A stretch of DNA of 64,000 nt from Escherichia coli (lineage in GTDB: Bacteria; Pseudomonadota; Gammaproteobacteria; Enterobacterales; Enterobacteriaceae), in NCBI RefSeq assembly GCF_003018255.1, contig NZ_CP027440.1; one strand, written 5' to 3'. A program made the position numbers and the translations under genes. The notes below the pieces were generated by a model. The model was not told the origin of the DNA and ran no database searches. It saw only the letters and a list, made by a program, of their open reading frames with translations. Positions 15,807 to 19,240 of the stretch are shown one piece after another. Numbering within the stretch: position 1 is the stretch's first letter; each line of letters starts with the position of its first letter.

Positions 15807-16487
15807 TTAGCGCAAAATTCCATACTCACTGCACAATAACCATTTCACCGGTTCATCTTCTTCTATCGCCGGAAAACGTCCTCCCGGCTCAAGAAAATAA
15901 TTATCGTGTTGGTCATCATTTACCATCGAGATTTCCCAGCCGAGAACAAACGCTTTTTCCGCCCAGAAGCGATGATACAGACGCGGCGGCAGGCAAATGC
16001 CCTGCCCCGGCTTTAGCACCAGCGTTTCACCAGGTTTCATGGTACGCCGCTGACCATCAACACTCACGGTAATGACTCGTTGATCATCACAGAGATTGGC
16101 TTCGTTGGCCCAGGCCAACTGCATGCATAAGTCTCCACCGCCCCGATTGAGGATATCTTCCATTTTGTGGGTGTGAAAATGCCAGGGAGTCTGCTGATCT
16201 TGTTGGATCTGCAACATTTTCTCAGCATACGGTTTTGGATATGCCGCCGACCCCAGCGCGCCGTTGCGCATCGTTAGCAGTGTTAGTCCCGTTTGGTTGA
16301 AATCACCACGACCAAAATCGGTGATATCCCAACCGAGCTGTAAGTCGACCACTTCTTGCCAGTTATCCCGTTCCCGCTGCAGCCAGTCATCCACCGTAAA
16401 ATAGGCGAACTCTGGCAAACAAACGCGGAAGGTCTGCGCAATGGCATGTGCTTTATCAATAACATAATTAATTTGTGAACGTTTCAT
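15807..16487 (-). CDS. Cupin-superfamily protein (sugar isomerase-like), last gene of frz-like operon
   Basis: His-containing cupin-like motifs (WHFHTHK…, …YHRFWAE); ATG at 16487 with GGAGA RBS; track ORF extends to a GTG at 16526. Confidence 0.7.
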   Translation of the reverse strand: MKRSQINYVIDKAHAIAQTFRVCLPEFAYFTVDDWLQRERDNWQEVVDLQLGWDITDFGRGDFNQTGLTLLTMRNGALGSAAYPKPYAEKMLQIQQDQQTPWHFHTHKMEDILNRGGGDLCMQLAWANEANLCDDQRVITVSVDGQRRTMKPGETLVLKPGQGICLPPRLYHRFWAEKAFVLGWEISMVNDDQHDNYFLEPGGRFPAIEEDEPVKWLLCSEYGILR

Positions 16488-17400
16488 TGGCTTCTCCGTT
16501 GCGCATAGCAAGCCAGGCAGCGCCACGCATTCCGCTACTGTCGCCGTGCTGTGCTTTTACAATGGGAGTGGTGAATTGATCGGTGAAAACCAGTGGAGCG
16601 ACTTCTGCGTTCAGATCGGTGATAAGCAGTTCCACATTCGAAAGCCCGCCGCCGATCACAATCACGCCAGGGTCAACAACATTAACGATGGTTGCCAGCG
16701 TGCGGGCAAGCTGTTGGCGAAAACGTGCCACCTGCTGCATGGCACAAGCATCACCACGTTGTGCCAGGGTGACAATCGCCGCAGGAGTGAGCAAGTTACC
16801 AGTCATCTGTTGATAGCGTTCACTAAAACCGCTGCCGGAAACAAACGACTCCACGCAGTTGTGTTTGCCGCAATAGCAACTGACTGATGGACCATCTTCC
16901 TGCTCCGTATAGCCTGGCAACGTGATATGACCGCATTCGGCAGCATTTCCCCAGGCCCCTATAAACGGTCGTTGCTTGATGGCAATGCCACCGCCGCAGC
17001 CCGTACCAAGCGTAATACCAAATACCACGTCATAATCTTGCCCGGCACCGTCGCAAGCTTCTGATAGCGCGAAACAGTTACCATCATTGGCTATCACCAC
17101 CGGTTGCCCAAGCAATTGCTGCAAATCAGCCTGTAACGCATGACCGTTAATCACCTGAATATTCGCGTTTTTAATCAGGCCAGTGAGTGGCGAGATACTG
17201 CCGGGTAAGGCGATCCCTGTCAGCATCGGTCGTTGAACGTCCCGCCTAATCTGCTCGATAAGCGCCACAACGCATGAGACAAATTGTTGATATGTCGACT
17301 TTTGCGTCGGGCAGCGGTAACGGCGAATCTCCCAGCCATGCGCATCCATGACAACGGCGGCGATTTTGGTCCCACCAATATCCAACCCCAGATAGTGCAT
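16468..17400 (-). CDS. ROK-family sugar kinase
   Basis: LGLDIGGTKIA N-terminus and CYCGKHNCVE zinc motif; ATG at 17400. Confidence 0.85.
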   Translation of the reverse strand: MHYLGLDIGGTKIAAVVMDAHGWEIRRYRCPTQKSTYQQFVSCVVALIEQIRRDVQRPMLTGIALPGSISPLTGLIKNANIQVINGHALQADLQQLLGQPVVIANDGNCFALSEACDGAGQDYDVVFGITLGTGCGGGIAIKQRPFIGAWGNAAECGHITLPGYTEQEDGPSVSCYCGKHNCVESFVSGSGFSERYQQMTGNLLTPAAIVTLAQRGDACAMQQVARFRQQLARTLATIVNVVDPGVIVIGGGLSNVELLITDLNAEVAPLVFTDQFTTPIVKAQHGDSSGMRGAAWLAMRNGEANETFTN

Positions 17401-17447
17401 ATCTCGTTCCTTGTTGCGTAAAAGGCGGGTCACCCCGCCCTTCTGGC

Positions 17448-18308
17448 TTAGTACAGTGATGCTTTACCGAGCGAACCGAACAGTTTCATTTTGTGGCGAA
17501 TGACTTCCCGCGCCGCGTTAATCGCATCCGGATAGATGACGTTCGGGTCCCACCAGCTCTCTTTAGCGAGAATTTCACGCACTTTCTGGAAATAGGCGTA
17601 TTTCATATCGCTGGAGATATTGATTTTGCCGACGCCGAGCGTAACTGATTCAGCAATCTCCGCGTCCGGGTTTGCCGAACCACCGTGTAGCACCAGCGGA
17701 ATATCAATACGTCCGGCAATGTCGCGCAAAATGTCCATTTGCAGCTTCGGCTGCATCCCTTTTGGATAGATGCCATGCGCTGTACCAATCGCCACAGCCA
17801 GTGTGTCGGCACCTGTACGAGCAATAAAATCGGCGGCCTGCGCCGGATCTGTGTAGGTCACTTGTGAAACACCACCTTCTACCGACGTTCCTGTTTGTCC
17901 GATGGTTCCCAGTTCACCCTCAACCGATACTCCAACCGCGTGAGCGAGGCGAACCACTTCTGCGGTCAGCGCCACGTTTTCTTCATATGGCAGCAGCGAA
18001 CCGTCGATCATTACTGAGGTAAATCCGCAGCGAATCGCACGCAAAACATGCTCTACAGAGGCACCATGATCGAGGTGCAGTACAAACGGGATCGGACTAC
18101 GCTGGGTAATTTCGCGAACGTGAGCGAAAAAGGCATCGCCCACAAAATCATGTTCGCTGGGATGGATGGCAATAATCGCCGGAGTATTTGTCGCTTCTGC
18201 TTCATCCACGACTGCGCGAAGGAAACAGTTATCCGCCACATTAAATGCGCCAATGGCAAAGCCGTGCTGGCGGGTAGGTTGCAGTAATTCTTTCATCGAA
18301 ACTAACAT
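17448..18308 (-). CDS. Class II ketose-1,6-bisphosphate aldolase (GatY/KbaY/FbaA-like), paralog 2
   Basis: 286 aa with LHLDHG and GTAHG motifs. Confidence 0.85.
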   Translation of the reverse strand: MLVSMKELLQPTRQHGFAIGAFNVADNCFLRAVVDEAEATNTPAIIAIHPSEHDFVGDAFFAHVREITQRSPIPFVLHLDHGASVEHVLRAIRCGFTSVMIDGSLLPYEENVALTAEVVRLAHAVGVSVEGELGTIGQTGTSVEGGVSQVTYTDPAQAADFIARTGADTLAVAIGTAHGIYPKGMQPKLQMDILRDIAGRIDIPLVLHGGSANPDAEIAESVTLGVGKINISSDMKYAYFQKVREILAKESWWDPNVIYPDAINAAREVIRHKMKLFGSLGKASLY

Positions 18309-18388
18309 GTTAAATCTCCAGTTTCAGCGTGTAGTCCGCCCTGCCGGTGCGTTATTGCACTGGCATAAAGGCCATGACAGAAAATGAA

Positions 18389-19240
18389 TCAGGCTTTGCC
18401 GATAGAGCCGCTCGCCTGTAAATACGGTGTAATCGCTTCTTCGAAGGCCAGTTCCATAGCTTTCAGCGCGTCCACCAGTTCAATGGATATATCGTGACAG
18501 AGGGTATGCAGGAGCGCGGATTTCCCCCGTTCAAAAATGGCCGCCCCCACGTTGATTTTTGCTACCCCCAGCGTCGTACAGAGCTGGAGCTGATCGAACG
18601 GCGTACCGCTACCGCCATGTAATGCCAGAGGCACGCTCGAGCAGCGCGAAATCTCCGCCAGACGCTGAAAATCAATAGCAGGTACAACACCAGGCGCGTA
18701 CATGCCGTGCGCCGTGCCTACCGAGACGGCCAGTAGATCAATGCCTGTCTGCGCGATAAACGGTTCCACATCAGTGGGTTGCGTCATCAGGTCTGCATTG
18801 GCGGCCTGGTCGTAACGCGGCGCATCTGCCAGATGGCCCAGTTCGCCTTCCACGCAGAGCTGCGCGCTGGCGGCGAGTTCCACCACCGCCCTGGTCTGGC
18901 GCACGTTTTCCTCCAGGGGAAAAGCAGAAGCATCAATCATTAATCCGCTGAAACCAGCACGAAACGCCTGACGAATACAGTCCGGATTTTTGCCATGATC
19001 AAGCGCCAGAGTGACCGGTACTGAGGCAGATTCCGCGAGCGTTTTAACCACTGCCGCCGCGACGGGTGCAGGAAAATGCGCCAGATGCCCCTGATAGAGA
19101 TTGAGAATGATCGGAGCGCGATTCTTCTCCGCCACGCGGATAGCTGCGTGAGCACTTTCCAGATTCATACAGTTGATCGCCAGCAAGGCGTAATGTTCAT
19201 GCCAGGCTTTCATCACCATACTTTTCATATCGGCAAACAT
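18389..19240 (-). CDS. Class II ketose-1,6-bisphosphate aldolase, paralog 1
   Basis: 283 aa with LALDHG and GTAHG motifs; GGAGG RBS. Confidence 0.85.
   Translation of the reverse strand: MFADMKSMVMKAWHEHYALLAINCMNLESAHAAIRVAEKNRAPIILNLYQGHLAHFPAPVAAAVVKTLAESASVPVTLALDHGKNPDCIRQAFRAGFSGLMIDASAFPLEENVRQTRAVVELAASAQLCVEGELGHLADAPRYDQAANADLMTQPTDVEPFIAQTGIDLLAVSVGTAHGMYAPGVVPAIDFQRLAEISRCSSVPLALHGGSGTPFDQLQLCTTLGVAKINVGAAIFERGKSALLHTLCHDISIELVDALKAMELAFEEAITPYLQASGSIGKA

Follow-up and report, generated by a model that had tools for sequence, protein, structure and literature searches.

A candidate ketose 1-phosphate pathway in the frz operon of Escherichia coli

We analyzed a stretch of 64,000 nucleotides from Escherichia coli (contig NZ_CP027440.1, assembly GCF_003018255.1), called the window below, and focused on eight genes that it carries between yicH and yicI. 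These genes are almost certainly the frz operon, a sugar catabolic island that is horizontally distributed and known from pathogenic and commensal E. coli. The operon is an already published system, and the new part of our work is a testable hypothesis on its chemistry: with a probability of roughly 0.4, the two class II aldolases of the operon, A283 and A286, would cleave a ketose 1-phosphate made by its phosphotransferase system (PTS), and the products would be dihydroxyacetone phosphate (DHAP) and a free aldose salvaged by accessory enzymes. The gene content, the frz identity, the conservation of metal and catalytic residues, the loss of the Arg that holds a distal phosphate, and the division into core and accessory genes are direct observations.

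Rouquet and colleagues reportedly described the frz operon in 2009 (J Bacteriol 191:4427) in the avian extraintestinal pathogenic E. coli (ExPEC) strain BEN2908. Their abstract is said to list a PRD/Mga-type activator, enzymes IIA, IIB and IIC, two class II aldolases, a ROK kinase and a cupin, and the sugar was reportedly left unassigned.

The eight-gene island between yicH and yicI

The gene order in the window is recG, gltS, xanP, yicH, eight tightly packed minus-strand frz genes, yicI, yicJ and tRNA-Sec, and the RefSeq annotation likewise places eight genes (regulator, IIA, IIB, IIC, two aldolases, ROK and isomerase) between yicH and yicI-yicJ-selC. The whole insert (15765 to 23021, minus strand, 7,257 bp) lies between the stop codon of yicH (15763) and that of yicI (23045). 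When the window was compared by BLAST with the empty site of strain K-12, the yicH-yicI homology stopped at 15764 and restarted at 23022, with 27 bp of the K-12 spacer replaced by the 7,257-bp insert. The region listed as "GR 27, frz operon" in the BEN2908 genome paper measures 7,227 bp (PMC12928451), against 7,257 bp here. Further, the diagnostic primers frz-FP and frz-RP, printed in PMC6238794 with a published product of 843 bp, have exact single matches at 22326-22345 (minus strand) and 21503-21522 (plus strand), which predicts a product of 843 bp (21503 to 22345) within the regulator gene; in shuffled sequence, these primers found zero matches. Three independent tests, namely the yicH-yicI position, the size and the diagnostic primers, therefore concur on the frz identity.

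All eight genes are intact and have the lengths of the RefSeq proteins. The original prediction, made from the letters of the window, had described an island of two aldolases, a ROK kinase and a cupin at 16468-19240. This interval holds only three of the eight genes, as intact minus-strand open reading frames (ORFs) for the two class II aldolases and the ROK kinase; the whole unit runs from 15807 to 22750, and the cupin gene is actually located at 15807-16487. The lengths and families given for these four proteins (283 and 286 amino acids (aa) for the aldolases) held up.

At least 80% of the operon is carried by 1,604 of 5,426 complete E. coli genomes (about 30%, by megablast), and the cupin gene is 100% identical to the copy in strain Nissle 1917. 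Its presence is used as a marker of virulence and fitness in extraintestinal E. coli from birds and humans. In the accessible literature that we searched, no growth substrate is named for frz, more than 15 years after the description of the operon; the statement in the original prediction that the substrate is not deducible from sequence still stands. We also considered whether frz is the D-tagatose cluster of B2-phylogroup E. coli known from Nissle (PMC9720028) and rejected this, the latter being a separate ABC-transporter cluster.

A conserved core, its accessory genes and the aldolase pair

For comparison between species, one genome per species was scanned with an alignment of the A283 family, which yielded 71 loci, and homologues of all eight genes were then sought at each locus. 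Gene order was counted in the 68 loci with enough DNA, and kinase and cupin classes were scored in 67. The order regulator-IIA-IIB-IIC-A283-A286 is invariant in all 68 loci, which come from three phyla and from hosts that include many Enterobacterales, Enterococcus, Pediococcus, Lactobacillus, Marinilactibacillus, a Streptococcus metagenome-assembled genome (MAG) and Sebaldella. Over these loci, IIC is 52-97% identical and A286 53-100%.

The genes after the aldolase pair differ between loci. With the E. coli proteins as BLAST queries, we counted both a ROK kinase and a cupin in 11 loci, a ROK kinase only in 8, a cupin only in 11 and neither in 37, all four counts being approximate. A short Lyx_isomer cupin follows the pair in Marinilactibacillus and Sebaldella (L073 and L082) and in a separately fetched metagenome locus, L008; these short cupins have 160-178 aa and are about 24% identical to the E. 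coli frz cupin. In the Lactobacillus locus L080 the pair is followed by a ScrK-like fructokinase, and in L008 by a ROK kinase and a type I mannose-6-phosphate isomerase. In the Pantoea and Pectobacterium loci the pair is the end of the set, and a search of the neighborhood showed no kinase of whatever type. Since the order never changes and the kinase and cupin come in some loci only or give way to other types, the PTS and the aldolase pair are the functional core and the ROK kinase and cupin are accessories. Unrelated enzymes for unphosphorylated sugars of the mannose and fructose type have been attached to this core several times independently. The original prediction had joined isomerization, phosphorylation and cleavage in one chain, and the variability of kinase and cupin in the 68 loci, together with their membership in free-sugar families, speaks against such a chain being obligatory.

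Two further loci deserve mention. An Erysipelotrichaceae MAG (L074) was taken up as a possible frz locus with a single aldolase and was rejected, as its aldolase is generic and unrelated and belongs to a different pathway. At positions 2453-6134 of that locus, the generic class II aldolase adjoins a PTS IIC and is followed by genes resembling those for fructose-6-phosphate aldolase/transaldolase, tartronate-semialdehyde/sulfolactaldehyde reductase and sulfoquinovose isomerase, and the cluster may encode a pathway of the sulfosugar type. In L008, a PRD regulator with an EIIA domain, a 292-aa class II aldolase and a fused PTS IIABC are located just upstream of the distant frz-like operon (1654-4470). 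This aldolase is 53% identical to A286 and has Y-E-P-D in place of D-P-R, and the module constitutes another fructose-type PTS with an aldolase and without a kinase.

The two aldolases, A283 (283 aa, 18389 to 19240, minus strand; NCBIfam matches with E down to 1e-63, Pfam PF01116 in its relatives) and A286 (286 aa, 17448 to 18308, minus strand; 525 bits with PRK08185/NF006042 against a cut-off of 405, E down to 1e-158), are paralogues with 33% identity, and both have the signature residues of the PF01116 class II family (DH, GxxHG, LHGxS and E-x-E). We tabulated the residues of the A283 family (n = 77) and the A286 family (n = 70) in alignment with E. coli FbaA, GatY, KbaY and YdjI, and A286 was also aligned pairwise with five fructose-bisphosphate (FBP) aldolases of solved structure (1RV8, 2FJK, 7NCC, 7NC7 and 4TO8).

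The catalytic Asp and the His ligand of the DH pair, the His residues of GxxHG and LHGxS, the E-x-E motif and the Lys and Asn of K-x-N are invariant in 77 of 77 A283 relatives and 70 of 70 A286 relatives. Judged by these residues, neither frz aldolase appears to be a degenerate pseudo-enzyme. The original prediction had offered one of the two as a GatZ/KbaZ-like non-catalytic partner. Loss of the active site does not bear this out, with the metal ligands and catalytic Asp kept throughout the A283 family, nor does homology: a BLASTP comparison of A283 with K-12 GatZ returned a 22-residue patch with E = 0.004. The prediction had also assigned HLDHG and GTAHG motifs to both proteins. GTAHG is indeed found in both, but HLDHG occurs in A286 alone; A283 reads ALDHG, and the place of the first His in HxDH is taken among the 77 relatives by Ala in 40, Ser in 26 and Asn in 11, and by His in none.

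The alignment that had been proposed as a check showed the metal ligands and the catalytic Asp present in both paralogues and the distal-phosphate Arg missing from both. Where bisphosphate aldolases carry the Arg of D-P-R, A286 has W-D-P-N, with Asn (Asn256) in 70 of 70 sequences; the Arg is present in FbaA, GatY, KbaY and all five solved FBP aldolases. In A283 the position is variable (Ala, Val, Pro or Ser), with no conserved residue. According to Qamar et al. (1996), Arg331 of FbaA is said to bind the C6 phosphate. At the position of FbaA Ser61, A286 has an invariant His and A283 a Tyr.

The catalytic loop differs as well. Bisphosphate aldolases have G-G-x-E-D-D, and A286 has G-(D/Q)-T-G-T-S-V-E-G-G, in which Glu144 (69 of 70) sits four residues later than FbaA Glu182, although the loop is flexible and its alignment uncertain. 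FbaA Glu182 is the mobile-loop Glu whose role is given in PMC11194214. The A283 loop reads H-x-A-D-A-P-x-Y-(D/E), with Asp139, and under the same uncertain alignment a canonical loop Glu is not evident in it. A283 also has N-V-G-A-A where N-x-x-T-(D/E) is found elsewhere, and so is without the phosphate-binding Thr; A286 has NISSD. Finally, in each of the 68 pairs A283 shows lower conservation than A286, the mean gap being 15.6 identity points. Given this asymmetry, that is, the faster evolution, the missing His and Thr and a loop Glu that is not evident, A283 may still have an auxiliary or heteromeric role.

Neither paralogue reached the equivalog cut-off of any bisphosphate-aldolase model in NCBIfam. 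The two scored 270 and 212 bits with TIGR01859 (cut-off 343), 230 and 181 bits with TIGR01858 (cut-off 444), and 185 and 149 bits with the KbaY model PRK12738 (cut-off 542). The only model that A286 passes is PRK08185, an unnamed subfamily. RefSeq names the pair ketose-bisphosphate aldolase and class II fructose-bisphosphate aldolase.

The accessory ROK-family sugar kinase is Mak-like and has 310 aa from the RefSeq start (16468 to 17400, minus strand; the ORF extends to 17433). A full-length alignment with the manno(fructo)kinase Mak of K-12 gives 42% identity. The N-terminal ATP motif DxGxT (LGLDIGGTK) and, as originally predicted, the zinc motif H...CxCGxxxC (GH...CYCGKHNC) are both present and align with those of Mak. 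Its best NCBIfam model is the fructokinase PRK09557, with 318.7 bits, under the cut-off of 443. The kinase is thus best described as a Mak paralogue outside the Mak equivalog, with a sugar specificity that is predicted only. The nearest solved structures are NagK and glucokinases, and the closest characterized relatives (Mak, NagK and the glucokinases) phosphorylate free sugars, not sugar phosphates.

The second accessory gene encodes a cupin of the D-lyxose/D-mannose isomerase family (226 aa, 15807 to 16487, minus strand; match to 3KMH and 3MPB) and overlaps the kinase gene by 20 nt. Against the D-lyxose isomerase 3KMH it gave E = 1.4e-64 over residues 13-236 and keeps the metal motif HxH(x)4E...H (PF07385), which substantiates the His-rich metal-site pattern noted beforehand; its score with NF051472 was 271.7 bits, under the equivalog cut-off of 350. 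Recorded activity in this isomerase family is solely on unphosphorylated sugars. A DNA-level search of E. coli genomes for a second copy (the O157 Z5688 paralogue) found none beyond the frz copies.

Just upstream of the aldolases are the PTS genes, and the predicted link of the island to a PTS was confirmed by fructose-family IIA, IIB and IIC above NCBIfam cut-offs: IIA (156 aa, 20700 to 21170; TIGR00848, 127 bits, cut-off 103.5), IIB (104 aa, 20368 to 20682; TIGR00829, 100 bits, cut-off 76.85) and IIC (363 aa, 19252 to 20343; TIGR01427, 311.5 bits, cut-off 157.55), all on the minus strand. The first gene of the operon encodes a PRD-containing transcriptional regulator of the Mga/BglG type (517 aa, 21197 to 22750, minus strand). 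By NCBIfam, its N-terminus matches AcpB/EbpR/MafR and its PRD regions match LicT/GlcT; its orthologues have Pfam HTH_11, Mga and PRD, and RefSeq labels it a BglG family transcription antiterminator.

Candidate chemistry and its alternatives

We propose the following route. The PRD-type activator would turn on the fructose-family PTS, which would import a ketose and add a single phosphate, most likely at C1. The class II zinc aldolases, the only two enzymes that every locus encodes together with this PTS, would then act directly on the ketose 1-phosphate, as stereo-specific enzymes or as a heteromer, so that cleavage would give DHAP and an unphosphorylated aldose and a second phosphorylation would not be needed. 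In E. coli and some relatives, the cupin would isomerize a D-lyxo or D-manno aldose to the ketose, and the Mak-like ROK kinase would phosphorylate the free hexose for entry into glycolysis. Four elements of this route are inferred: which carbon is phosphorylated, the specificity for a monophosphate, the freeing of an unphosphorylated aldose and the identity of the sugar.

We prefer a monophosphate substrate because both aldolases have lost the residue by which a second phosphate is held, because most loci have no adjacent kinase and the kinases present resemble free-sugar kinases, and because the cupin belongs to an isomerase family that acts on free sugars and a PTS does not supply these. As for the sugar, the accessory set (a lyxose/mannose isomerase, a manno/fructokinase and, in one locus, a mannose-6-phosphate isomerase) points to a D-manno or D-lyxo aldose and hence to a higher-carbon ketose as the substrate. 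The pair itself may consist of two stereo-specific enzymes, form an obligate heteromer, or combine an aldolase with an epimerase.

Several points weigh against this route. The fructose-family PTSs ManP of Bacillus subtilis and MngA of E. coli phosphorylate at C6, not C1. In core-only species, the housekeeping 1-phosphofructokinase could add the second phosphate, and evolved E. coli does route D-tagatose via the fructose PTS, FruK and KbaY/GatY (PMC10101011). Other residues of A286, e.g., the invariant His49, Arg244 and Lys236, could bind a distal phosphate. The canonical loop Glu appears displaced in A286 and is not evident in A283, the activity of which is only predicted. At least three of the 37 loci scored as having neither accessory carry distant ones that BLAST missed (L073, L082 and L080). 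Moreover, release of a hexose as the aldose would imply a ketose of nine carbons as the substrate, an unusual sugar.

The alternative that survives best, although we consider it rather unlikely, is the classical bisphosphate route, the one given in the published annotation and also held by the earlier reader. Here the PTS would make a ketose 1-phosphate, the operon ROK kinase or a housekeeping kinase of the FruK/PfkB type would add a second phosphate, and the paralogues would be stereo-specific ketose-1,6-bisphosphate aldolases like GatY and KbaY that give DHAP and glyceraldehyde 3-phosphate, with the cupin replenishing the ketose pool from an aldose. In favor of this route, both are F_bP_aldolase proteins whose best NCBIfam hits are models of FBP and tagatose-bisphosphate aldolases, the RefSeq names agree, every metal and catalytic core residue is retained, and the D-tagatose route just mentioned is a working case of the same kind. 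However, no bisphosphate-aldolase equivalog cut-off is reached by either paralogue, and the distal-phosphate Arg is Asn in every A286 sequence and absent from A283. Of the 67 scored loci, up to 48 had no adjacent kinase that BLAST with the E. coli ROK kinase could find, although this BLAST missed at least one, the ScrK-like ROK of L080. Where a ROK kinase is present, its closest characterized relatives all act on free sugars, and the isomerase family acts on unphosphorylated sugars, not on PTS products.

It is also possible, but unlikely, that A286 is the sole working aldolase, with A283 being either a subunit of an obligate heteromer that would set its specificity or stability, in a role like that of GatZ/KbaZ and without homology to them, or a C4/C3 epimerase. 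As an epimerase, A283 would cleave the imported ketose phosphate in a retro-aldol step and rejoin the halves to give the isomer used by A286 or by central metabolism. The active sites of class II aldolases are completed by a neighboring subunit, which would suit a heteromer. The lower conservation of A283 in every pair, its lack of the HxDH His and the N-x-x-T Thr, a canonical loop Glu that is not evident in it, and the adjacency of the two genes in the same order in 68 of 68 loci (suggestive only) point the same way, and class II aldolases can 4-epimerize sugar phosphates (PMC5434028). On the other hand, the catalytic Asp, the three His ligands, E-x-E, K and N are kept in all 77 A283 relatives, which would be needless in a purely structural partner, and A283 has no similarity to GatZ. 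This alternative is compatible with the cleavage of a ketose 1-phosphate and does not exclude it.

Least probable, and in our view improbable, is that frz is mainly sensory or regulatory, with PTS flux and the PRD regulator reporting an environmental sugar and indirectly setting the fim switch and stress fitness while the enzymes merely clear the inducer: secondary accounts in PMC8777976, PMC12928451 and PMC6238794 describe fitness in late stationary phase, oxygen restriction, serum and gut, a fimS switch biased towards ON, and no growth substrate, and the regulator is a PTS-controlled activator of the PRD type, but the strong purifying selection on the aldolases and IIC over three phyla and the repeated recruitment of salvage enzymes indicate real metabolic flux, and the core also occurs in plant-associated and lactic acid bacteria, where we assume that a fim role would be unexpected.

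Returning to the ketose 1-phosphate route, a wider form of it can be stated, which we regard as doubtful. The frz-type loci of E. coli B2, Klebsiella, Citrobacter, Pantoea, Pectobacterium, Listeria, Enterococcus and Sebaldella would represent an unrecognized PTS pathway in which an obligate pair of atypical aldolases cleaves a ketose 1-phosphate, and the substrate would perhaps be a plant ketose of eight or nine carbons. This idea of a C8-C9 ketose comes from the repeatedly recruited salvage enzymes being specific for free D-lyxo/D-manno sugars. As a speculation, DHAP and D-mannose with fructose-type stereochemistry would correspond, by our own stereochemical derivation, to D-erythro-L-gluco-nonulose 1-phosphate. 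Free D-erythro-L-gluco-nonulose has reportedly been found in avocado.

The comparative result, i.e., an invariant PTS and aldolase pair, optional free-sugar enzymes and loss of the Arg, defines a concrete and inexpensive set of enzyme assays. If the monophosphate reading is true, both families would be misnamed in databases (as "ketose-bisphosphate aldolase" and "class II fructose-bisphosphate aldolase"), and the nutrient behind the gut advantage of B2 strains would be identified.

Operon signals, flanking genes and known systems

A terminator-like hairpin with a 9-bp stem, six G-C pairs and a T-run was found by a consensus scan at 15772 to 15797 (minus strand), 10 nt past the stop codon of the cupin gene, and is the probable end of the operon, its position being suggestive only, since the promoter and terminator scan of the region gave a site total no higher than in shuffled sequence. 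An untranslated spacer of 80 nt (18309-18388) separates the two aldolase genes, whereas the other junctions of the operon are 11-47 nt or overlapping; this spacer is also about 80-90 nt in Klebsiella, Gibbsiella, Pantoea and Pectobacterium and just about 15-40 nt in the Firmicutes versions. The GC content is 0.43 across the regulator, IIA and IIB (20001-22000), versus 0.53-0.54 across the aldolases, kinase and IIC (16001-20000). Such a mosaic inside the island fits the modular gain of accessory genes seen between species.

Beyond yicI and yicJ, the tRNA-Sec gene selC (27048-27142) is followed by a short low-GC stretch (GC 0.405 at 28-30 kb; region 27048-29400). An ORF of 388 aa in this stretch (27066-28232) has no match among the NCBIfam families. 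Strain A36, the closest RefSeq genome, encodes a "virulence RhuM family protein" just after selC (17496-18533 of locus L001), which we do not equate with the ORF in the window. At the selC-adjacent site, K-12 has yicT and setC, and Nissle 1917 has an integrase and a larger island with genes of an ABC-three-component system. Core genes restart after this stretch with yicL, nlpA, nepI, ade, uhpT, uhpC, uhpB and ilvB.

We then compared the operon with known systems. The frz operon of BEN2908 is the same locus, at the same yicH-yicI site, with the same eight gene types and nearly the same size, and shows no substantive difference. In Listeria monocytogenes, lmo2133-lmo2138 was named a homologue of the ExPEC operon by Deng et al. 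2010 (PMC2996996). Like the six-gene frz core, which we also found in Enterococcus, Pediococcus, Pantoea, Pectobacterium and others, it has two class II aldolases, a fructose-type IIC, IIB, IIA and a regulator; unlike in E. coli frz, a ROK kinase and a cupin are not listed in the cluster (PMC2996996).

The GatY/GatZ and KbaY/KbaZ systems for tagatose 1,6-bisphosphate also have a PTS-linked class II aldolase of about 285 aa, which is 31-36% identical to the frz aldolases and needs a second protein encoded beside it. However, this second protein, GatZ or KbaZ, has about 420 aa and no real similarity to A283, and GatY and KbaY both have the DPR Arg and the GGxEDD loop, neither of which is found in the frz pair. 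Unlike the route proposed for frz, the gat and aga pathways include a dedicated bisphosphate-forming step.

The best precedent for the proposed mechanism appears to be YdjI of K-12, an L-glycero-L-galacto-octuluronate-1-phosphate aldolase (PDB 6OFU) of the same class II family (E = 5e-49 and 2e-38 with the frz pair). Like the proposed activity of the pair, that of YdjI is on a long-chain ketose 1-phosphate according to its RefSeq annotation, and YdjI too is without the distal-phosphate Arg. It differs in that the sugar enters by a permease, the kinase YdjH is of the PfkB type, there is a single aldolase, and the loop and distal-pocket residues are unlike those of both paralogues.

For the accessories, the D-lyxose isomerase EcSI/Z5688 of E. 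coli O157:H7 (3KMH, 3MPB) has its cupin family and metal motif in common with the frz cupin, which is a paralogue of it and not the same protein, with a substrate that is predicted. Finally, the sucrose-type PTS regulons (scrK) and Mak follow a common logic, in which the PTS product is split into a phosphorylated half and a free sugar and a kinase recovers the latter; the splitting enzyme proposed for frz would be a C-C lyase, the aldolase, whereas that of the sucrose regulons is a glycoside hydrolase.

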